Positions 33,131 through 43,943 of a stretch of 64,000 nt of DNA are shown piece after piece. Position numbers and translations under genes: made by a program. The notes under the pieces were generated by a model. The model was not told the origin of the DNA. It saw only the letters and a program-made list of their open reading frames with translations, and searched no databases. The DNA lies in contig CANHCR010000009.1 of assembly GCA_947459205.1 (NCBI GenBank), positions 798-64,797 of the forward strand, read 5' to 3'. This DNA is from Bacillales bacterium (lineage in GTDB: Bacteria; Bacillota; Bacilli; Paenibacillales; CANHCR01). The stretch's first letter is position 1; the number at the start of each line of letters is the position of its first letter.

Positions 33131-34255
33131 ATGCAAAACAGCGAATGTAACCTAGCGCAAATTTTGCCGATGATTTCTGCAAATTCTCCAGAACATCACA
33201 AAGCCATCATCCAGCAATGTCCATCCGCAATTCGTGAAATGGCTAACCCTGATGAGGCGCTCAAATCGATGGCTTTGCAGATTGCACCTTGGATGCGACA
33301 TGTTTTACATCTTCGTAATGATGACGAAGCCCTGCAAAAACTGATTGAGGCGACCGTGAATCATGGGTTTTTTATGGAACGAGAGGCCGAACAGCCATCT
33401 CTGCATTTAGGCGGGGTCCCGTTTCCAAAGAAAATCTATTATCCGCTTGATCGCTTTCCGAACGACCATTTTAAATTAGATATTCATGACGCGAAGCGTC
33501 AATCTCAACCGCTGTCCAGTTCGAGAATTAACGAGCATGATGACCGCGTTGATGTTTCGCCTGATTTTGAAAGTTGGGCATGGTATCAAACGTTTCATGC
33601 ATGGTCGGATGAGGAATACGGCATCTATATCACCACGTCTGGTTTAGCAAGATTTGCGGACCGTGCATTTTATCAAGCGCTTTTACGACATGAGCACCAA
33701 TCGAATCCGAACCCAAATAAGACAGAATTGAAAAAGATATGGTCTCAGTCTTTGCAAATGGCTTTTCAGACCGTGCTATTTCATGAATACTATCATTTCT
33801 TTAAGGATATTGCAGCTGCCACTTTAGAACAACTTTGGTTCGCATTGAACCCTGGGAACACACGCCAGTTTTTTCATGAGTACAGAAAGAACATCTATTT
33901 TCCTGGGCTACATAACCGACTTCGTGAAGAGCCATTGGAAGAGGCGTTGGCGAATGCTTTTTCTTGGCGAGCGTTCTGCGAAAGATACTCAGATTCATCT
34001 TTGTATGATCAACAAGCGATCGAACTTGTAAAACAAGATTTGGCGAAATATATGACTAATCAACCAAGCGGGTACTGTCATTATGATCAATTTATTGAAG
34101 ACGCGGAGTATGTGAAAGGGAATCAACAACTGATCTCTTTGCTGTTGACTCAGCAGGCGAGTGTGATTCCAGGCAGCGAGCGTCTCTTGCAACCGACTTT
34201 CGCTGACATGTACAAGTATAACGTGCCCGTTTATGTGATTGATGATCGAGACTAG
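33131..34255 (+). CDS. hypothetical protein with HExxH motif (putative zinc metallopeptidase-like)
   Basis: 374-aa ORF with VLFHEYYHFF (HExxH) and a downstream acidic EEPLEEALANAF segment. Weak RBS. No family recognised. Confidence 0.6.
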   Translation: MQNSECNLAQILPMISANSPEHHKAIIQQCPSAIREMANPDEALKSMALQIAPWMRHVLHLRNDDEALQKLIEATVNHGFFMEREAEQPSLHLGGVPFPKKIYYPLDRFPNDHFKLDIHDAKRQSQPLSSSRINEHDDRVDVSPDFESWAWYQTFHAWSDEEYGIYITTSGLARFADRAFYQALLRHEHQSNPNPNKTELKKIWSQSLQMAFQTVLFHEYYHFFKDIAAATLEQLWFALNPGNTRQFFHEYRKNIYFPGLHNRLREEPLEEALANAFSWRAFCERYSDSSLYDQQAIELVKQDLAKYMTNQPSGYCHYDQFIEDAEYVKGNQQLISLLLTQQASVIPGSERLLQPTFADMYKYNVPVYVIDDRD

Positions 34256-34499: not shown

Positions 34500-34528
34500 T
34501 TGACGCTAGTAGTTTGAAGAAATATATT
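34500..34528 (+). promoter_or_regulatory. putative sigma-A promoter for the dynamin genes
   Basis: TTGACG (34500-34505), 17 nt, TATATT (34523-34528), within the 382-nt AT-rich gap upstream of 34638. Confidence 0.45.
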
Positions 34529-34637
34529 TTACATAATTGAGGATTTTAAATGAAATTATTGAATTATAACGATGCTGGTAAATTCTGTACGCATCAGGAA
34601 AATACTTTATCTTTCAATTCAAGGTGGTCTGATATCT

Positions 34638-36479
34638 ATGATTCAAACTAATCCATTTGTCGAGAAAAAAGACGTTCTAAGTGAGTGTAATCGAGAATTG
34701 CTTACCATCATTTCTGATGAGTATATGGCAAGTCGGGTTGAAGCTGCCCAGAAGCGCCTGACAAATGAGAAAATGAAAGTTTTAGTTGTGGGTGAATTCA
34801 GTCGAGGAAAGTCAACGTTCATCAATTCGATTTTGGGCAGACCGATTTTACCTTCAAAAGTAAATCCGACTACAACGACGATTAATATTATCGAAGGTGC
34901 CCTAGAACAGAAAATCATGATTGAGTATACTGACAAATCAACGGAACAGTTGGAGTTTCCGACTGATAAAGTGAATAAGTTTCTCGAAGGCTACGTTACC
35001 GTAGCAAATCAGCAGTGGAACAGAATTACTAAAGTAAATATTTATGTCGACAACAAGCTGAAAGATTGGAATTGTGTGTTGGTGGACACTCCGGGTGTCA
35101 ATGATCTTGACGCTTCTCGTGAAGACATTACATTTAAGTATTTATCGGAAGCAGATGCCTGCATTGTATTGTTGGACTCTCAACAGCCTTTATCTGAAAG
35201 TGAACGTGATTTCATAAAAAACAGAGTGCTAAAAAATGATGTGAATCGCTTACTGTTTGTTATTAATCGATTTGATGAGGCAGAGTCCTTTCCGAATGGA
35301 CCTCAATCGGAACGCATTATCAAACATGTTCAAAAGCTGATTGTAGAGTGTATACCAGAAATAAGCGACCCTGTTGTATACACTGTTTCCTCTAAAGAAG
35401 CGCTAAAAGGTAGATTTAAAAATGAGTCGAACGAATGGGAAACACATTTTAACGAATTCGAACGTCACTTGGTCAAATTTATTGCCGATAATGCCATTGA
35501 TAATAAGTTAAGTGTTCATGCAGAGCGTACCATTGGAATCTGTCGCGACTTAATGGATGATCTCAAATCTTCTAACTCTATGCTTTCTGTTTCACAGACG
35601 GATTTAGAGTCGATTAAGCAAAAACTCTTGAAAGAAAAAGAAATTGTGAACAACGAATTAAAGCTTCTCGATACAACCAGCTCAACGGCCGTTTTTACGA
35701 TGAAACAAGAAAACGTAAAGTTGGTCAATGGACATCTGCAGACACTTCGAACAAATTTGCTGAACATGGCGACATCCATTTCGAGTGAAGATGAGTACGG
35801 CGAGTTAAAAGTATACTTATCAAATGGTATCCGCGATTTAGTTGAATTATTGAGAGAGTCAATTGAGAAGATGAAAACACAATTTGAAAAAGATATCAAA
35901 GATAAGTGTACTTTTATCGGTTCGTCAACAACAGATATCGTTCTTAAATCGTTAGGACGGCAATTAAGTCCGGATCGCATCACGGATGTCGAGTTGATGA
36001 CAGATGTAAAAGAAACATCGAGTGCAGCTGAAGACGCGGTCGCGATTGGGGCAGGTCTAGGCATAGGAATATTGGGAGGCATGTTATTTGGTCCGGTTGG
36101 CATTGCTGCAACCATTCTTATCGGAAGGATTGTGGGCAAACATTTGCAAAGTCAACAGGAACAGCGGGAACTAGAAGCGTTGAAGCAAAATGTCATTGAT
36201 AATATCAATATTCAAATTTCGAATGTGCTTCAACATTTTTTAGAAAACAACGAAGATAGGTGCCGGGAAATCATTGATGAGGTAAAAGCGAAGTATGTGG
36301 AGATGGCCAACAGTAAACTTCGTTCGATGGAAAAAATCACGACGACACAGTTTACAGATATTGCCACTAAACAAAGGGATATTTCATCTGAGCAGGCATC
36401 TATCGCTTCCAAAATGGAAATCATGAAGAAAATTACTAGCATCTCTTTATCACTATTAGACAAAGGAGACATTACATGA
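34638..36479 (+). CDS. bacterial dynamin-like GTPase 1
   Basis: G1 GEFSRGKST, G3 VDTPGVND, G4-like INRFD. C-proximal Gly/Ala-rich hydrophobic paddle (AIGAGLGIGILGGMLFGPVGIAATILIG). ATG 34638 follows AAGGTGG (track start 34572). Confidence 0.9.
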   Translation: MIQTNPFVEKKDVLSECNRELLTIISDEYMASRVEAAQKRLTNEKMKVLVVGEFSRGKSTFINSILGRPILPSKVNPTTTTINIIEGALEQKIMIEYTDKSTEQLEFPTDKVNKFLEGYVTVANQQWNRITKVNIYVDNKLKDWNCVLVDTPGVNDLDASREDITFKYLSEADACIVLLDSQQPLSESERDFIKNRVLKNDVNRLLFVINRFDEAESFPNGPQSERIIKHVQKLIVECIPEISDPVVYTVSSKEALKGRFKNESNEWETHFNEFERHLVKFIADNAIDNKLSVHAERTIGICRDLMDDLKSSNSMLSVSQTDLESIKQKLLKEKEIVNNELKLLDTTSSTAVFTMKQENVKLVNGHLQTLRTNLLNMATSISSEDEYGELKVYLSNGIRDLVELLRESIEKMKTQFEKDIKDKCTFIGSSTTDIVLKSLGRQLSPDRITDVELMTDVKETSSAAEDAVAIGAGLGIGILGGMLFGPVGIAATILIGRIVGKHLQSQQEQRELEALKQNVIDNINIQISNVLQHFLENNEDRCREIIDEVKAKYVEMANSKLRSMEKITTTQFTDIATKQRDISSEQASIASKMEIMKKITSISLSLLDKGDIT

Positions 36480-38197
36480 ATATACCATACGGGAAAGTCG
36501 CAGACGAACTTCTCGAAATATCGAATGTACTGCAGGAACGCAGGGCTAACTTGCTTTTGCAACAGATTAAAGAAAATGAGCAACGAAATTCGTTCCATGT
36601 TGCAGTCCTCGGTGAGTTTAAACGCGGGAAATCTTCGTTAATCAATTCTCTGATTGGAGAAGAATTGTTACCAAGTGATTTATTGCCTGCTACCGCGGTT
36701 TTAAATGTGCTGGAATATGCTGAACAGCCTGAGTTGGTCATTAAGTGGAGAGACGGAAATTCTGAAACGGTCGAATTGACGAGAGAACAATTAAATAGAT
36801 TTACTGTGGAAGGTTCTGCGGACTCTGAGCAGGTTCAGTTTCTCGTTTTAAGGTGTAATTCACCTATCCTTAGGGAAGGTTTGGTGATTATTGATACACC
36901 TGGAGTAAATGATATTTCAGAATCGAGAATTGAAGTGACAAAAAACATTATTCCAAATTGTGATGCTGCCCTTTTTTTACTGGACGCTGCTGCACCAGTC
37001 ACCAGAAGTGAAGCTGAATTTCTTCAAACTCAGGTTCTTTCATTCAGCCTACATTCATTACTGTTCGTCATCTCTAAGGCCGATCGATTGGATGAGGAGG
37101 AATTGGAGGAATCCTTGCAAGGCGCAGAACAGAGATTGAAGCAGTTGCTATCAGTAGAACCTAACATCATTGCTTATTCGGCACGCGAAGTGATGCGTTC
37201 TATTCAGTCCAATGGATATTCAGAACAACAAACAGAACTGCTTCGACATGTTCAAAAGCTGAAGGAGAAAGCAAATAGTGAAAAAGTATTGCGTCAGTCC
37301 AGCAAACTGAAAGCTACCATCGCGATATTAGAAGACCATTTAGACAACGCTGAACAGATACTATGTCTTGATGAAACGAAATCACAAGAACTGATGATGA
37401 ATATTGAACAGCGATTGCGCTCGGACAAAGCGAAGTTTCACCAGTTCATAGATAGTATGAACATCGTGGGTCGATCAACCTTGGTGCGAATGTTCGAAAC
37501 ATCCTTTGATAAGTTCATTAAAGACTTAACGACTCAAATTCTTGATCAAATCCGAGTCGTTGATGATGTTGAAAAATATCTAACTAAGGCATTGCCAGTT
37601 GAAATCGAACGCTCTGTCCGGCTTTATACAGAGCGAAAAAGCAAGGAGATTTATGATTATTTGAAGAATTTCACGAATCATGTATGCAGTGAATACAATC
37701 GACAATTTCACTATGTGTTAAATTTGGATACGATGAACATTCATCTTCCTGAGTTGCAGCAAACTCAAAACGAAAACTCTCAAATGATGTCTATGATTGG
37801 CAGTTACTTGCCGATGACCGCATTGATGATTGCGGGGAGCATTATTATGCCTGGCATTGGCTCGGCAATTGGGATGGCTGCTGGACATTTATTACAAAAA
37901 CATTTGAATGATAAGAAGCAAAGTGAACTGCGAGAAAAGTATTTGGGTGCCATGCCAGATTTGGTGAAATCAGAATTACAGGGCTACAGACAAAATGTTG
38001 TGGAAACGATCAACGGACACTTCGATATGTTGATTCAAAAAGTACAATCTTTTCATCAGTTGCGTGAGGACGAATGGCTAGCGCTATCGGAAGGGACTTC
38101 GTCTGAAGTGAAATCTGATGAGTTAGAAAATCGACGAACAGAATATGAGATGCTAAAAGTTAAGTTGTTGACAATTAAAAAGGAGAGTGTTGGCTAA
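36476..38197 (+). CDS. bacterial dynamin-like GTPase 2
   Basis: G1 GEFKRGKSS, G3 IDTPGVND, ISKAD. Paddle MIGSYLPMTALMIAGSIIMPGIGSAIGMAAG. ATGA overlap with the upstream gene. Confidence 0.9.
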   Translation: MNIPYGKVADELLEISNVLQERRANLLLQQIKENEQRNSFHVAVLGEFKRGKSSLINSLIGEELLPSDLLPATAVLNVLEYAEQPELVIKWRDGNSETVELTREQLNRFTVEGSADSEQVQFLVLRCNSPILREGLVIIDTPGVNDISESRIEVTKNIIPNCDAALFLLDAAAPVTRSEAEFLQTQVLSFSLHSLLFVISKADRLDEEELEESLQGAEQRLKQLLSVEPNIIAYSAREVMRSIQSNGYSEQQTELLRHVQKLKEKANSEKVLRQSSKLKATIAILEDHLDNAEQILCLDETKSQELMMNIEQRLRSDKAKFHQFIDSMNIVGRSTLVRMFETSFDKFIKDLTTQILDQIRVVDDVEKYLTKALPVEIERSVRLYTERKSKEIYDYLKNFTNHVCSEYNRQFHYVLNLDTMNIHLPELQQTQNENSQMMSMIGSYLPMTALMIAGSIIMPGIGSAIGMAAGHLLQKHLNDKKQSELREKYLGAMPDLVKSELQGYRQNVVETINGHFDMLIQKVQSFHQLREDEWLALSEGTSSEVKSDELENRRTEYEMLKVKLLTIKKESVG

Positions 38198-38616
38198 TGT
38201 CTGATTTTTTGGATTCGATGTTTCATCAAAGCACGAGTAATGTATTCGGTGGCGAAAATATGTATAGTCAGAATGGAAGTCTAATAGGAAGTACGCAACC
38301 GAATGTATTTGGCGGTGAAAATTTATACGATGCCAATCATCAAATGATAGGGCACACAACGGATAATGTGTTTGGTGGTGAAAACATGTTCGACAACAGT
38401 CATCAGTTGGTTGGAAGCACCCAACCAGGTGTGATGGGGACAAATGTTTTTGACGGTCATCACCAGCAGATAGGACACGTTCAGTATGATGCTACAGGTG
38501 GAAGTTTCCATGATTTGCACGGACAACAAATGAGTTGGCAAAACAACATGTTTGGTGGCGTCACCATGGACCCGCTACAAAATACTGCAAGTTTGAGTTT
38601 TCCAAATTTGATTTAA
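38197..38616 (+). CDS. small protein built from 21-aa NVFGGEN-type repeats
   Basis: 139 aa. Repeats: NVFGGENMYSQNGSLIGSTQP / NVFGGENLYDANHQMIGHTTD / NVFGGENMFDNSHQLVGSTQP / GVMGTNVFDGHHQQIGHVQYD, plus degenerate copies. TAATG overlap with dynamin 2. Confidence 0.75.
   Translation: MSDFLDSMFHQSTSNVFGGENMYSQNGSLIGSTQPNVFGGENLYDANHQMIGHTTDNVFGGENMFDNSHQLVGSTQPGVMGTNVFDGHHQQIGHVQYDATGGSFHDLHGQQMSWQNNMFGGVTMDPLQNTASLSFPNLI
38239..38490 (+). repeat. 63-nt in-frame tandem repeat (4 clear copies) within 38197..38616
   Basis: Copies at 38239-38301, 38302-38364, 38365-38427 and 38428-38490, read from the DNA and translation. Confidence 0.8.
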
Positions 38617-38632: not shown

Positions 38633-41600
38633 ATGTCGAATATCGGAAAACAATTAGTTGAAAAAGTTCTAAAAGGTAATCCGCTTCAAAATGAAACATT
38701 TCATTTTTTGAAAGATTCTCAAATATTTTGTCAAGTGAACAATTTTCAAGAGGAGCATTCTGGATATTTCTTTATTTCGAATCAGAGACTCGGATATGTA
38801 CTGAACGACGGAGAATGTTTTTACTATTTCCCTTATTCAACAGTATATCGATATGAATCTCAATATACTGATGAAACCGAGCAGTATGTATATATATCTA
38901 TTTTGACAATTCACGATAATCAATGGAAGTGGACACGTTTTCACGTACTTGTAGATGATAAGGTTTTTTCGAGTATTCAGTTTGTACTCGACTACAAGTA
39001 TTTTTATCCTGCAGAGACATCTAAAGGGGACATTAAGAAAATAGCAAGTTTGATTAATGAATCAAGATTCCAAGACGCGATCGATGTACTCAATGAGTTA
39101 GGGCAAAACGATCCGCTATGTGGAATCTACCATGCATTGCGATTTCAAGTCAACTCAATCCAAGGAAAAAGTGAATTCGCACAGTTTAATTTGATACAAA
39201 TGTTTGATACTCTGTCTATCTTGGATCCGGAACCGTTGATTTATGCCATTGACTCTCTTGAGTGGGATAGTCGTATCATTCAATGGATGAATCAATATCA
39301 AGAAAACACACTGGAATTTAGAATAAAAGAATATATGATGGCAAAGTCAAGAAAGAACCCAGTCGAGATTTTTCATGCGATGAACCAGATGTTTGCTCAA
39401 CTGGAAGGTGAATATTCTGATTTCGGCGACATTTTATCATTAAAGTCATCATTATTGATCAACTACTTCGTCGGATGGAGTCATCTATTAGATGAGAACA
39501 TGGTAAAGCGTACTCATCAACTCATAGTGGATACGGAAAAAAAATATATTCAATCGAATGATTTTGCTCATCTATCAGATGCTGAAGCGAACATGGTTGT
39601 CCGTAGAGGAGCTACGCTTAACAGTTATCCTCAATCAGGGTTGTTCGAATGTGTGCGAACCATGTATTCTACAATAAATGGATACCCTCAAATAAGTGAG
39701 ATGTTTAATCATCATCAGTTTGTCTCACTAGCGAACCATTCATTTGATCTTGTGTCTCTCTATGATGTTGACCAGAGTGACACATGTTCTTTCCTTTACA
39801 ATGAGTTGCCGGCGAAAGAAAAAAGCAGACTTATCAACAATATTTATTGCTTATTTGCGCTTTTGCGAACGGAGGGAATAACGGAAAAAACCAAGCAAGT
39901 CTTTAACTCCATGCGTACAAAAGAGGGTATCGACATCAATATTGTTTTGTCGAAACCACAGTTGATTTTGGAAACTAGTATCTACTTTTTTTCCTGCATT
40001 GAATATTTCATCTTAACGTCTCAGAAAAAACTCGCTAATGAATATATTCTTCACTATCGATTTAAATACGGTGAGGCACTCGGTTCGAACATTCATCATA
40101 TATTAAAATTTGGGAAAGATATTTTAGATGTTTATGAGGCTTGGGCCAACAGTGACATTCCATTATTAATGTCCGCCAAGAATTTTGAAGTTTTTCTTGA
40201 GATTGATTGGCTACCATCGCTATACATAAAATATATACAACCAATGATAGAGAAGCACTTAAAGCGACTCAATGAGAACCCTCAACAGTCCATGCATGTA
40301 GTGCGAAATAGTATATTAGAAATCACATCAGGTTTTCAAAGTCTTGCACAATCCAATGAATTGTTGCAAGCGAAAAAAACGAAAATCAATGAATATGTGA
40401 ACCAAATAAAGAATCGGTTGCATTCCGACGAATTACGGATTGCGGTCATTGGGGAAACAAGTGCTGGAAAGACATCGTTGCTTAATCGGATGTTCGCTAC
40501 AGATTTATTTTATGTGACCCAAGAAGAGGCAACAGGAGTACCGACAGAAATACGTAACGGGATTGAAGCGGATGCACAAGTGTTGGACCGGCACGGAAAT
40601 GTTGTGATTAGGCTGAATGACACACAAAAATTCGAACTAAATCAAATGATTAAACGTACCGTTTCGAATTCAAATGACACTAGTCTAAATTCTCAATTAC
40701 ATGCATTTATCAAACAACACACAAAAGTAGACGAAGAGCGTTCTGTGAATGTAGACAGAGTGGTTGTTACTTTACCGATTCATGATCTGCCGAAAAATGT
40801 AGTGATTATTGATACCCCAGGTTTTAATGCAAATCAAAAGAGAAGTGACATTGCCTTAAATGTGATTAATCAAGCACACGTTTGTATATTTATCATCGAT
40901 GCACGAAACGCCTTGAAAAGTAAAGAGATGAACATTTTGAGAACGGTTCGTGAGCAAACGGGTAAATTGTTCTTGGTGTTGAATAAGATGGATTTAATCA
41001 TGGGTGATGATGAATTAGATTGTGATGACGGTGATTCTATTAAGCAGACGTTGGATCGAGTGAATGGTGATTTAGTCCGTTTTTTTGATAGTGATAAATT
41101 CCAAGTGTGTCCAGTCACTTGTATGCCTGCGGATAGAGTGCCTGCGGAAATTGTGGAGTATGTCAATAATTTATCTAGTTTAAAAACGAGAGTAATTGAA
41201 CATGCAACAACCAATGAGTTGGAACTGATTACCGATATGGCGGTGAAAGAATCTGTCGATTTGATAGAAGAAGTTCAAACAATTATGTATCAAACAAACA
41301 CTCAGAAGATAAACAAAACCTACGAATCGATCGACAAGTTACCCATGGATCCTCACATACACGCTAGTTTTTTATATGAACAGATAAACGATTGGTTGTT
41401 TTCACTCGAGCAAAGTTATAAATCGAAGATGTATGCTTTTAATCTTGCAAAAATACAAGATGCAATCGATACTTTTGCCGCATGGGTCTCCAATCAAACG
41501 AGTAGTGATCATTTGACGACTGGCGCACAAGCGAAAGCGGAAAGTATACTGACGATTGCTGTCAATGAAATTAACCGAAATCGTAAGCAAGAACTGAACA

Positions 41601-42184
41601 AGTTTTTAACGGCTCTATCCAAGAATATCGGTGATTATTTTGTCGAACTATACAAAGGATACGACATTAAAATTCAAGTGAATAAAACTGAGATTGATAA
41701 TTTGTTAGAAAAAATACAACGTGTCACATCAACCGAGGTTAGTGCTATTGGAAACATTGATGATGGTGTAAAAGATCAACTTTCCGGAGCGGCAATCGGT
41801 GCAGCAATTGGATTGATTTTGGGACCGCTTGGTGCGCTCGTCGGAGGATTCTTAGGAGGTTTGTTTTTTTCGAAATCAATTGAAGAAATTCAATATGAAG
41901 TGAACCAGGCCTTTTATAACGTGGCTAACGATACGCATATGAAATCTAATCAAATGGTAGAGAATGAAATAAGTCTTCAGAACGATCAAACCATTATGGC
42001 GAAAATCGATGAGGTTTGTGAATCGATTATGACGAAATACATTCAAGCAGTAGATCGTGTGCGTGGTTCATACCGTAACGAGATTAATGAATCTTTGGAA
42101 CGAATTATTCAAACTAAACATCATATCACCGATATTGCTAATAAGAATGTTCTCCTTGAAACTTGGCGCTCGTCGCGAAGGTAG
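38633..42184 (+). CDS. large dynamin-like GTPase 3 with about 560-aa N-terminal extension
   Basis: Central G1 GETSAGKTS, G3 IDTPGFNA, G4 LNKMD. C-proximal paddle LSGAAIGAAIGLILGPLGALVGGFLGGLFF. RBS AGGTGG. Confidence 0.85.
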   Translation: MSNIGKQLVEKVLKGNPLQNETFHFLKDSQIFCQVNNFQEEHSGYFFISNQRLGYVLNDGECFYYFPYSTVYRYESQYTDETEQYVYISILTIHDNQWKWTRFHVLVDDKVFSSIQFVLDYKYFYPAETSKGDIKKIASLINESRFQDAIDVLNELGQNDPLCGIYHALRFQVNSIQGKSEFAQFNLIQMFDTLSILDPEPLIYAIDSLEWDSRIIQWMNQYQENTLEFRIKEYMMAKSRKNPVEIFHAMNQMFAQLEGEYSDFGDILSLKSSLLINYFVGWSHLLDENMVKRTHQLIVDTEKKYIQSNDFAHLSDAEANMVVRRGATLNSYPQSGLFECVRTMYSTINGYPQISEMFNHHQFVSLANHSFDLVSLYDVDQSDTCSFLYNELPAKEKSRLINNIYCLFALLRTEGITEKTKQVFNSMRTKEGIDINIVLSKPQLILETSIYFFSCIEYFILTSQKKLANEYILHYRFKYGEALGSNIHHILKFGKDILDVYEAWANSDIPLLMSAKNFEVFLEIDWLPSLYIKYIQPMIEKHLKRLNENPQQSMHVVRNSILEITSGFQSLAQSNELLQAKKTKINEYVNQIKNRLHSDELRIAVIGETSAGKTSLLNRMFATDLFYVTQEEATGVPTEIRNGIEADAQVLDRHGNVVIRLNDTQKFELNQMIKRTVSNSNDTSLNSQLHAFIKQHTKVDEERSVNVDRVVVTLPIHDLPKNVVIIDTPGFNANQKRSDIALNVINQAHVCIFIIDARNALKSKEMNILRTVREQTGKLFLVLNKMDLIMGDDELDCDDGDSIKQTLDRVNGDLVRFFDSDKFQVCPVTCMPADRVPAEIVEYVNNLSSLKTRVIEHATTNELELITDMAVKESVDLIEEVQTIMYQTNTQKINKTYESIDKLPMDPHIHASFLYEQINDWLFSLEQSYKSKMYAFNLAKIQDAIDTFAAWVSNQTSSDHLTTGAQAKAESILTIAVNEINRNRKQELNKFLTALSKNIGDYFVELYKGYDIKIQVNKTEIDNLLEKIQRVTSTEVSAIGNIDDGVKDQLSGAAIGAAIGLILGPLGALVGGFLGGLFFSKSIEEIQYEVNQAFYNVANDTHMKSNQMVENEISLQNDQTIMAKIDEVCESIMTKYIQAVDRVRGSYRNEINESLERIIQTKHHITDIANKNVLLETWRSSRR

Positions 42185-42305: not shown

Positions 42306-43943
42306 ATGAAAAAAATGAAGATTATCTTTGTTGTTTTGGTTGTATCTTTGGCATTTAATTTGCTGCCAACAATTTCATGGTCTCAAAGCCCGATTCAAAT
42401 TTATATCAATGGGGTAAAAAAGATTTATGAACAACCGCCTATTGTTCAATATAGCACCACTTTAGTTCCAATGAGAGGCATTTTTGAATCGCTTGGCGCC
42501 AAAGTGGTTTTTAATTCAAGCACTAGACAAATCACAGGTGTAACACCAACTGTTGAAGTGAAATTAACAATAGGTCAGAAAATTGCATCTGTTAATCAAA
42601 ATGGAAAGATTAAAAAATTATTGCTTGGTGTTCCCGCTCAATCATTAAAGGGAAATACGATGGTTCCTTTGAGGTTTATTAGTGAAGTACTCGGAAGCAA
42701 TGTTTCATGGAATCCGCAACAGAGAATTATTAATATTAACCAAGCGAAACCCAAATTACTGTTTAGTGTATCTAAAAAAACTTTGTTGATTGGCGAGACG
42801 ATTCAGTCAAATGTTACACTGCTTAATTTCTCTAAGAAATCACCTTTCGTACAGTATTTCAGCAATCGACCAGATATTTTACATGTTGATGATTTTGGAA
42901 GAATGACTGGTAAATCACTTGGGGTCGCAACGATAACAGCAACGACAGAGAATGTAGAATCTTCAATTAAGGTTGAAGTTACGAATATCATCTGGATCAA
43001 TGATGAAATTGTTCATTCTGCAAGTTCCGGAAACTACGGAAGTGTAGGTGTTTCGTACAATAAAAATCAATTCATGGTTAGAAACTCAATTTATGATTTG
43101 AACTCCGGTAAATTTTTAAAAAAGTTTGCTAATGATACTCAATTTTATAAAAGTGGAATCGTGGAATATAAGTCTGAATGGAATGCGTCGCCCAAAATAA
43201 ATTTTTACAGCGATTCTTTTAAAGCGGAAGGTCAAGCAGAAAGTGCGCTTTTCCCATCAACTATCATTGGTTCTCCATTCACTTCGGTTTTCGGAGATAA
43301 ACTGTTTTATATGGGAGGACAAAAAAAATATTATTTATATGATACATCTTTTCACGAAATTCTTACTTCATACCATTCAACTGAAGAAACCGGAGATTAT
43401 TTTTTCACTTCCAACGTAGCGAGTAATTATGACGAAAGTATCGTGGCAATAGATTCTACAGAAGGAAAGATTCACCTATACGATATGAAAAATGGACAAT
43501 TCATTAATAAATTAAATGCATATAATTATGCTGAGTCAACGAATGATTATAGTTTCGCGTTTAATCCCGGAGATTATCATTTTGGTTTACTTATCGATGA
43601 TCGTGCAAATGGTGTATTAAGTATAATAAATCCTTTGAATCAATCTCTAGAACACAGAATATCGTTCGTGAACAAAAAAATTCGAAGTTTTGCTTTTAGT
43701 CCTAGTGGTAAATTTGTTGTTGTAGGTGACAATAAAGGCACAATCACAATATTTAATTTGTCGGATTATTCGGTAGAAAAAACTTTGAGTACCAAACTTA
43801 ACATTTCAAAAAATAAATTGAACGAGGGAGCAAGTTCTGTTGAAAAGTTATCTTTTGCCAAAGGGGATAAAAAGATACTCGCTTTCTATTCGAGTAACTA
43901 TGACCCAAATGTGATTTGTTGGGATACCAACTTACCGAATTGA
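42306..43943 (+). CDS. secreted protein: stalk (copper amine oxidase N-like), Big_2-like Ig and beta-propeller/WD40-like regions
   Basis: Signal peptide MKKMKIIFVVLVVSLAF. Stalk-type LVPMRGIFESLGAKV and MVPLRFISEVLGSNVSW. Big_2-like GVATITATTENVESSIKVEV. C-terminal FAFSPSGKFVVVGDNKGTITIFNL. Confidence 0.8.
   Translation: MKKMKIIFVVLVVSLAFNLLPTISWSQSPIQIYINGVKKIYEQPPIVQYSTTLVPMRGIFESLGAKVVFNSSTRQITGVTPTVEVKLTIGQKIASVNQNGKIKKLLLGVPAQSLKGNTMVPLRFISEVLGSNVSWNPQQRIININQAKPKLLFSVSKKTLLIGETIQSNVTLLNFSKKSPFVQYFSNRPDILHVDDFGRMTGKSLGVATITATTENVESSIKVEVTNIIWINDEIVHSASSGNYGSVGVSYNKNQFMVRNSIYDLNSGKFLKKFANDTQFYKSGIVEYKSEWNASPKINFYSDSFKAEGQAESALFPSTIIGSPFTSVFGDKLFYMGGQKKYYLYDTSFHEILTSYHSTEETGDYFFTSNVASNYDESIVAIDSTEGKIHLYDMKNGQFINKLNAYNYAESTNDYSFAFNPGDYHFGLLIDDRANGVLSIINPLNQSLEHRISFVNKKIRSFAFSPSGKFVVVGDNKGTITIFNLSDYSVEKTLSTKLNISKNKLNEGASSVEKLSFAKGDKKILAFYSSNYDPNVICWDTNLPN

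Follow-up and report, generated by a model that had tools for sequence, protein, structure and literature searches.

What is a small repeat protein doing between the genes of dynamin-like GTPases? The question is raised by a 64,000-nucleotide (nt) stretch of DNA from a Bacillales bacterium (positions 798 to 64,797 of contig CANHCR010000009.1, assembly GCA_947459205.1), called the window hereafter, in which an open reading frame (ORF) of 139 amino acids (aa) at 38197..38616 lies between the second and the third of three dynamin genes, dyn1, dyn2 and dyn3. We use the name flower for this repeat gene and its relatives, and L-numbers for the collected loci; the genes of the cassette and the sequence elements within and just before them are all on the plus strand. 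The gene encodes an acidic repeat protein for which a 12-stranded barrel of the beta-flower/Tubby-like kind, followed by a C-terminal helix, is predicted. Comparison of gene orders indicates that flower is the constant fourth, non-GTPase gene of a three-dynamin cassette, a conserved rule and not a local accident. We propose, at a probability of roughly 0.6, that the flower protein, a barrel with a tail, would be an adaptor or regulator subunit binding the three-dynamin assembly, likely in phage defence or in limiting membrane damage.

To place the gene among its relatives, 102 loci were gathered through exact look-up and through scans for patterns in collections of genomes, metagenomes and viruses, and their ORFs were classified with a flower hidden Markov model (HMM) and by phmmer with the three window dynamins. 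Dynamin genes adjoin 24 of the 25 flower genes that encode a C-terminal DPL tail and have adequate flanks, the one without being from Thalassotalea; three more lie on contigs too short. No dynamin was found near the 19 tail-less flower genes with adequate flanks. The order dyn1-type, dyn2-type, flower is constant over 25 dynamin-bearing loci; in the 18 that have both upstream genes on the contig, flower comes directly next in 17/18. The gap between flower and the dyn2-type gene is usually -17 to +35 nt, and the long dynamin is encoded either directly after flower or before dyn1. The window and 24 further loci have this same layout, with a flower gene encoding the DPL...FP tail directly after the dyn2-type gene and both a dyn1-type gene and a long dynamin gene in the same operon. 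Cassettes of DPL-tail flower genes and dynamin genes occur in Bacillota, Bacteroidota and Neomarinimicrobiota, and their carriers include one Neomarinimicrobiota single-cell genome and one Bacteroidetes metagenome-assembled genome. An independent check starting from dyn2 found flower in both cassettes sampled from named genomes: the protein of Caldicellulosiruptor acetigenus has 183 aa with seven repeats and the tail ...MIKFPNLI (dyn2 36% identical), that of Paenibacillus amylolyticus 136 aa (dyn2 29% identical). No flower gene was found in three more distant loci that have a single dynamin or are differently organised. Homologues at other dynamin loci, whose absence the sequence-only reading of this DNA had listed among the results that would refute it, are thus present. 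Because the other neighbours in the window are not kept in other cassettes, the conserved unit is taken to be the three dynamins and the flower gene.

The junctions of the flower gene place it for translation coupled to that of dyn2, as far as this can be read from the nucleotides. The dyn2 stop codon TAA (38195-38197) shares one base with the flower ATG (38197-38199) in a TAATG junction, and a Shine-Dalgarno-like AAGGAG (38180..38185), read from the sequence, lies within the end of dyn2, 11 nt 5' of the flower ATG. The flower stop codon is at 38614-38616 and the dyn3 ATG at 38633, leaving a gap of 16 nt; the overlap and the gap from which coupling to the dynamins had been proposed are therefore both borne out by the coordinates. 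The best sigma-70-like match for a possible operon promoter, TTGACG-17-TATATT at 34500..34528, about 44 nt 5' of dyn1, is weak, and in a promoter and terminator scan of the region matches were no commoner than in shuffled sequence. The encoded protein has a predicted isoelectric point (pI) of 4.6 and contains nine His and no Lys, Arg or Cys. A hydrophobic segment and a signal peptide were looked for and neither was found, in agreement with the initial statement that the protein has no signal peptide or transmembrane segment, and its sequence marks it as cytoplasmic. A gene of 139 aa is also called, without a name, in ENA ERZ28613002, a 227-kb metagenome scaffold matching the window.

The repeat has a period of 21 aa. 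Three canonical 63-nt repeats occupy 38239..38427 (aa 15-35, 36-56 and 57-77) and follow the pattern NVFGGEN.(Y/F)....(L/M/Q)(I/V)G(S/H)T...; two degenerate repeats follow at 38428..38544 (aa 78-98, GVMGTNVFDGHHQQIGHVQYD; aa 99-116, ATGGSFHDLHGQQMSWQN), in which the strands predicted by AlphaFold2 (AF2) stay in register. A sixth, terminal unit, NMFGG (aa 117-124, NMFGGVTM), and the C-terminal tail DPLQNTASLSFPNLI complete the protein at 38545..38613; the family consensus of the tail is DPLxNMxxxxFPxL, residues 126-132 are predicted to be helical, and in the tail alignment (A2) F135 and P136 are invariant and D125 and P126 near-invariant. The 63-nt/21-aa repeat described initially is thus real, with three clean units, two degenerate ones and one terminal one. 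When the protein is matched to itself at an offset of 21 aa, 33 of 118 positions are identical; the highest value in 5000 shuffles, over all offsets, was 24. Between canonical units, 12-14 of 21 residues and 33-39 of 63 nucleotides are identical, and each pair differs by 6-8 synonymous and 7-9 non-synonymous codon changes. Tandem Repeats Finder reported no repeat in the DNA because the canonical copies are only 33-39/63 identical at that level, and the period is visible in the protein alone. These values fit an old and diverged repeat and not recent slippage. The same had been argued from the window by itself, and the diverged copies are now joined by full-length homologues at the same gene position across phyla and by a ratio of non-synonymous to synonymous substitution rates (dN/dS) of about 0.15.

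Flower proteins form a rare family that lacks annotation and that Pfam does not cover. Only 9 relatives came out of a word-indexed search of 5.8 billion proteins; when 1.84 billion cluster representatives were searched exhaustively with a profile, 679 matched at E <=1e-3 and 195 at E <=1e-10. Every named member is a "hypothetical protein", and precomputed Pfam domains are absent throughout. The dN/dS of 0.15 comes from one close pair of flower genes; a second pair (L042 and L049) gave 0.58, a value not relied on, as the ORF call holds an upstream extension. Taken together, the comparisons show a genuine gene kept under constraint. Within the family, which is here marked out as lying outside Pfam, two branches of opposite chemistry can be told apart, a cytoplasmic, acidic one and a secreted, basic one. 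Members of the cytoplasmic kind, to which the window protein belongs, are about 140 aa long; many begin with MSDxL..FHHS, and all end with a DPLx(N/H)......(F)P tail. They have on average 2.1% Lys+Arg, 7.8% His and a pI of 4.8. The extracytoplasmic kind has signal peptides or lipoprotein leaders, is rich in Lys and Arg (pI about 10), ends with a Cys, and comes mostly from lake and soil metagenomes.

Further observations were made on both branches. The extracytoplasmic NxFGG 21-aa branch, spread across many of L021-L095 (for example L023 1980-2480 and L071 615-791), is not near dynamins; the basic branch includes 58-aa forms of two repeats as well as fusions to multi-pass membrane domains at the N terminus (P0018, P0026, P0048, P0052). 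Basic-type flower-like ORFs are present on three IMG/VR viral contigs (L013-L015), without a PHROG match, and a tblastn search of plasmid and phage collections, run with the low-complexity filter on, gave no flower match. Stand-alone acidic flower genes were seen in Thalassotalea sp. PS06 (L004 10001-10399), near genes for an integrase, VapE, a resolvase, RadC, DUF2787, HsdM and IS21, and in Ralstonia sp. SET104 (L010 9968-10360), near genes for HsdM, an HNH nuclease and a ParE toxin.

The first reading had not recognised the repeat family. The results now point to a distant relationship with the beta-flower/Tubby-like clan, based on a sub-threshold match to Bflower_2 and on an AF2 model with Protein Data Bank (PDB) entry 1zxu as its best and only convincing solved match. 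The Pfam scan gave one match for the window protein, the sub-threshold one to Bflower_2 (PF21785, "5-fold beta-flower protein", clan CL0395; E 4.4e-7, aa 12-113 against profile positions 10-94 of 112), and one of 40 scanned relatives matches Bflower (4-fold) at E 9.6e-4. NCBIfam, PADLOC and PHROGs gave no match for the flower protein. With 21 aligned sequences, AF2 predicted 12 strands and a helix at 126-132 with a mean predicted local distance difference test (pLDDT) score of 84.2 and a predicted template modelling (pTM) score of 0.71; with 10 aligned sequences the topology was unchanged (pLDDT 77, pTM 0.66). In both runs the 12 strands are 3-8 residues long and in strict repeat register. Confidence is low for the first 6 and the last 6-10 residues; over the two final 10-residue blocks (from 121), which take in the helix at 126-132, the pLDDT drops to 71 and then 45. 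In the models, six NxFGG loops lie on one side and five tight D-x-x-(G/H) turns on the opposite side. In the window protein the turns are D-x-x-H or D-x-x-G, in the family consensus D-x-x-G, and the [DNEQ]xxG pattern of beta-flower hairpin tips is found in the loops as NVFG (three times) and NMFG (once). The predicted structure is a shallow, closed antiparallel barrel of short strands from repeated hairpins, as expected of beta-flowers with their 8, 10 or 12 strands. Of the two possibilities raised initially, a beta-hairpin repeat is thus favoured by the AF2 model and a solenoid is not.

Structural comparison with Foldseek placed 1zxu first in the PDB for both models (E 8.6e-5 with a query TM-score, TMq, of 0.65, and E 2.2e-3 with a TMq of 0.58). 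This entry, deposited as Arabidopsis At5g01750, is a 12-stranded Tubby/scramblase-like barrel. The remaining PDB matches have a TMq of 0.35 or less, save the de novo designed protein 9lx4 (TMq 0.57, E 0.19), and against BFVD only uncharacterised giant-virus proteins were matched, at E 2e-3 or weaker. We conclude that the flower protein, on the predicted model, is related to the beta-flower/Tubby-like clan distantly and below threshold, and that its 12 strands are arranged in a six-fold-like manner.

The three dynamins of the cassette appear complete. The dyn1 gene (34572..36479) encodes 635 aa with a P-loop GEFSRGKS at aa 74, DTPG at aa 172 and a Gly-rich hydrophobic paddle at aa 499-521, and matches Pfam Dynamin_N (E 6e-30), PADLOC LeoA (4e-30) and PDB entry 2j68 of BDLP (9e-23). 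The dyn2 gene (36476..38197) overlaps dyn1 by 4 nt and encodes 573 aa with a P-loop at aa 46 and a hydrophobic paddle at aa 440-467 (Dynamin_N 7e-28). The dyn3 gene (38633..42184) encodes 1183 aa: some 550 aa at the N terminus precede a GTPase domain at aa 600-790, whose P-loop is at 607, and a Gly-zipper hydrophobic segment lies at aa 1052-1070. All three match Dynamin_N with E-values of 1e-20 to 1e-30, keep intact G1 and G3 motifs, and have a Gly-rich hydrophobic segment of the membrane-paddle kind; their nearest solved relatives are Nostoc BDLP, IniA, mitofusins and LeoA. In PADLOC they match LeoA (E 4e-30, 1e-22 and 4e-20) and LeoBC (E 1e-16, 7e-15 and 6e-17). For aa 1-550 of dyn3 (38633-40282), no similarity to dynamins, to any Pfam family or to a PDB entry was detected. 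A degenerate second dynamin, as in DynA, was considered for this half and rejected, as BLASTP against dyn1 was empty and no Pfam family matched. In Paenibacillus amylolyticus the long dynamin carries beta-helix (NosD) repeats in place of the dyn3-type N-terminal region, and this end of the long dynamin may be a variable sensor or targeting module.

Other loci vary around the same genes. At L008 a Colicin-DNase/WHH nuclease gene (1255-1824) lies between the flower gene and that of a 1263-aa dynamin with Big_2/TPR domains, which points to an added nuclease effector in some cassettes. In L001-L003 the cassette has beside it, in divergent orientation, genes for M48, a Zn-ribbon protein and a second flower paralogue without the tail. 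Peptidase_M48 genes also adjoin the dynamin-like genes in 3/3 distant flower-less dyn2 relatives (L100, L101, L102).

From these elements we propose the following mechanism. The six hairpin units (the three canonical ones, the two degenerate ones and one made up from both chain ends) would close into the shallow 12-stranded barrel of a flower protein translated in step with dyn2. This protein would bind the dynamin assembly as an adaptor or regulator, with its C-terminal tail or its barrel contacting a dynamin. The DPL...FP tail is the best docking candidate because it tracks dynamin linkage; alternatively, it may simply be the plug helix of the barrel. The loop face, a ring of NxFGG loops with putatively exposed Phe, Asp/Glu/Asn and His residues, would offer a second surface towards the membrane or a trigger, and flower would thereby control where or when the GTPases assemble. 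An accessory subunit with such a role would presumably be stoichiometric with the dynamins.

Several results weigh against this proposal or parts of it. The fold assignment depends on prediction: the Bflower_2 score of 30.2 bits is under the gathering cut-off of 38 and so falls short of family-HMM membership, the window protein is the only one of 40 diverse family members scanned to reach this profile (E <1e-3), and a sequence-profile search of the PDB matched no solved structure (best E 1.2). Thalassotalea and Ralstonia have related flower proteins with no dynamins beside them. The acidic protein (pI 4.6) has no basic residues, and plain electrostatic binding to anionic lipid is therefore unlikely; binding of divalent cations or a pH-dependent switch would fit its chemistry, as a speculation. 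Finally, housekeeping genes surround both L053 and the closest homologous cassette (L016), so that a role in defence would not be general.

The setting of the window itself is a defence island. Between 14535 and 47723, about 30 kb of consecutive defence-type genes lie on both sides of the cassette, encoding a SNF2/ResIII helicase, an RNase_T+BRCT exonuclease, an AAA_21 ATPase, an N6_N4 methylase with ResIII and RE_endonuc, an EVE-HNH protein, a 1508-aa superfamily 1 (SF1) helicase with an MTES_1575 nuclease (PADLOC PDC-S37/Hhe/Mko-like), and McrBC (a Mrr_N-AAA_5 McrB together with McrC). Because of this setting and the similarity of the dynamins to those of Eleos, the cassette probably acts in phage defence. 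Two genes of the region were considered as further cassette parts and rejected, neither having a homologue in other cassette loci: a 374-aa ORF and a Cu_amine_oxidN1/WD40 protein. The former (33131-34255, + strand), just 5' of dyn1 and not kept beside other cassettes, has HEYYH (HExxH) at aa 218 and no Pfam, NCBIfam, PADLOC or PHROGs match; judging from this motif, it may be an uncatalogued metallopeptidase. The latter (42306-43943, + strand), between the cassette and McrBC and likewise not conserved with the cassette, is a secreted protein with a signal peptide, Cu_amine_oxidN1 and Big_2 domains and a WD40 propeller (pI 9.2).

The least unlikely of the alternatives keeps the subunit idea and places it in a housekeeping cassette for membrane repair or vesicles, like DynA or IniA/IniC, for which membrane maintenance and vesicle release are described (PMC12998192; PMC10240201). 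The position in the island would then be incidental. This reading finds some ground in L016 and L053, which are flanked by genes for ABC (ATP-binding cassette) transporters, a molybdopterin oxidoreductase and an NADH dehydrogenase subunit, and in the M48 (HtpX-like) membrane proteases beside distant dyn2 relatives. The patchy distribution across phyla speaks against it, as do the roughly 30 kb of restriction and defence genes on both sides of the window cassette and the AbiEii, transposase or nuclease neighbours at other loci.

It is also conceivable, and in our view unlikely, that flower is a sensor or specificity subunit whose barrel would detect a protein of the phage or a sign of damage and thereby license the three dynamins to assemble. 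Small non-enzymatic partners of nucleoside triphosphatase defence systems are often sensors. A sensor would agree with phage defence given by Cernunnos, a beta-flower domain protein, alone, with the stand-alone acidic flower proteins in the mobile or defence islands of Thalassotalea and Ralstonia, and with a His-rich, Lys/Arg-free chemistry that suits a pH- or metal-dependent switch. However, flower is not notably more variable than the dynamins (35-47% identity, against about 40-45% for dyn2 from the same relatives), and the 550-aa N-terminal region of the long dynamin is an equally good candidate for sensing.

Two further readings we hold to be distinctly improbable. In one, flower is the effector: its Tubby/scramblase-like barrel would perturb or scramble lipids, and the dynamins would deliver or restrain it. 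The description of 1zxu (At5g01750), the nearest solved fold, as a putative phospholipid scramblase, the fusion of the same repeat to multi-pass membrane domains or lipoprotein signal peptides elsewhere in the family, and the nuclease at L008, which shows that such cassettes can carry effectors, would be in line with this. But flower is very acidic, with no hydrophobic segment and no basic residues; the dynamins have membrane paddles of their own and are sufficient effectors in Eleos; and the added nuclease at L008 itself argues that flower is not the effector there. The other reading, a doubtful one, makes flower the switch of an immune or damage-response machine: its acidic, His-rich, Lys/Arg-free barrel would change state as the cytoplasm turns acidic or as divalent metal comes in through a breached membrane, dock through Phe-tipped NxFGG loops and recruit or activate the dynamins at the lesion, in a four-component type of dynamin defence distinct from Eleos.

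A non-functional chance ORF or low-complexity remnant between dynamin genes, for which database records that give neither a name nor a Pfam domain and the empty Tandem Repeats Finder result on the DNA could be cited, is effectively refuted by full-length homologues that keep both termini and the gene position across several phyla, by the 679 related cluster representatives, by the confident structure prediction (pLDDT 84.2), by the dN/dS of 0.15 in one close pair, and by the gene call in the source assembly.

The product of the 420-bp flower gene could be a missing adaptor, regulator or sensor for bacterial dynamins. The description of the beta-flower fold dates only from 2023, and to our knowledge no mechanism has been assigned to it. 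A conserved partner without GTPase activity, apparently co-translated with a dynamin and with a predicted Tubby-like fold, is a concrete test object for the fields of dynamin targeting and of beta-flowers. Should the switch reading hold, the cassette would amount to a new type of dynamin defence with four components, and the beta-flower fold would for the first time have a role in a mechanism.

Beta-flowers are shallow barrels of 8, 10 or 12 short strands formed by hairpin "petals", with semi-conserved [DNEQ]xxG turns and often a C-terminal helix (Durairaj et al., Nature 2023, PMC10584680). The flower protein resembles them in its small size, in its predicted build of nothing but short hairpin repeats closing into a shallow barrel, in a putative short C-terminal helix, and in its weak yet specific match to the Bflower_2 HMM. 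It differs in that its model has 12 strands in a six-fold-like arrangement although the sequence match is to a five-fold family, and in being acidic, His-rich and free of Lys and Arg, whereas the founding example has Arg/Lys-rich loops. A link to dynamins is not mentioned by Durairaj et al. (PMC10584680); they compare beta-flowers with 1zxu, described as a putative phospholipid scramblase, and report a circular permutation between Tubby and beta-flowers (PMC10584680). With the C-terminal domain of Tubby and the LURP-one-related or scramblase-like barrels (1zxu, 2fim), the predicted structure shares 12 strands in a closed barrel and a C-terminal helix; unlike them, it has much shorter strands and loops, only 15-18% sequence identity and no basic phosphoinositide-binding patch. 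Literature linking beta-flower or Tubby-like proteins to bacterial dynamins was not found, in incomplete coverage, which is absence of evidence only.

Cernunnos resembles flower in combining a beta-flower-class domain with a defence context, and differs in belonging to the PF21784 (4-fold) family and in acting alone, without dynamins; it was set against the flower protein by description only. Beyond Cernunnos, we found no experimental function for the fold class in the literature. Only a loose analogy is offered by IniB, from the iniBAC operon of mycobacteria, as a non-GTPase gene co-transcribed with a dynamin-like pair. It is described as a membrane protein, encoded by the first gene of its operon and absent from some mycobacterial species (PMC10240201), and no sequence or fold kinship with flower is expected.

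The closest system is Eleos (LeoBC and LeoA; Millman et al. 2022), which gives GTPase-dependent protection of Bacillus subtilis from jumbo phages and is described as two genes, or three if the first is split, with no non-GTPase partner (bioRxiv 10.1101/2022.05.11.491447). Like Eleos and the LeoABC genes of enterotoxigenic Escherichia coli (ETEC), the window has consecutive dynamin-like GTPases with intact P-loops in a defence island; the genes are adjacent, their GTP-binding motifs are intact, and they match both LeoA and LeoBC. The two-gene order of LeoBC followed by LeoA is not what the window holds: it has three dynamins (635, 573 and 1183 aa), the longest extended N-terminally by about 550 aa, and the 139-aa flower protein. 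The fold class, dynamin operons and Eleos are already known, and flower is an uncatalogued branch of the beta-flower clan.

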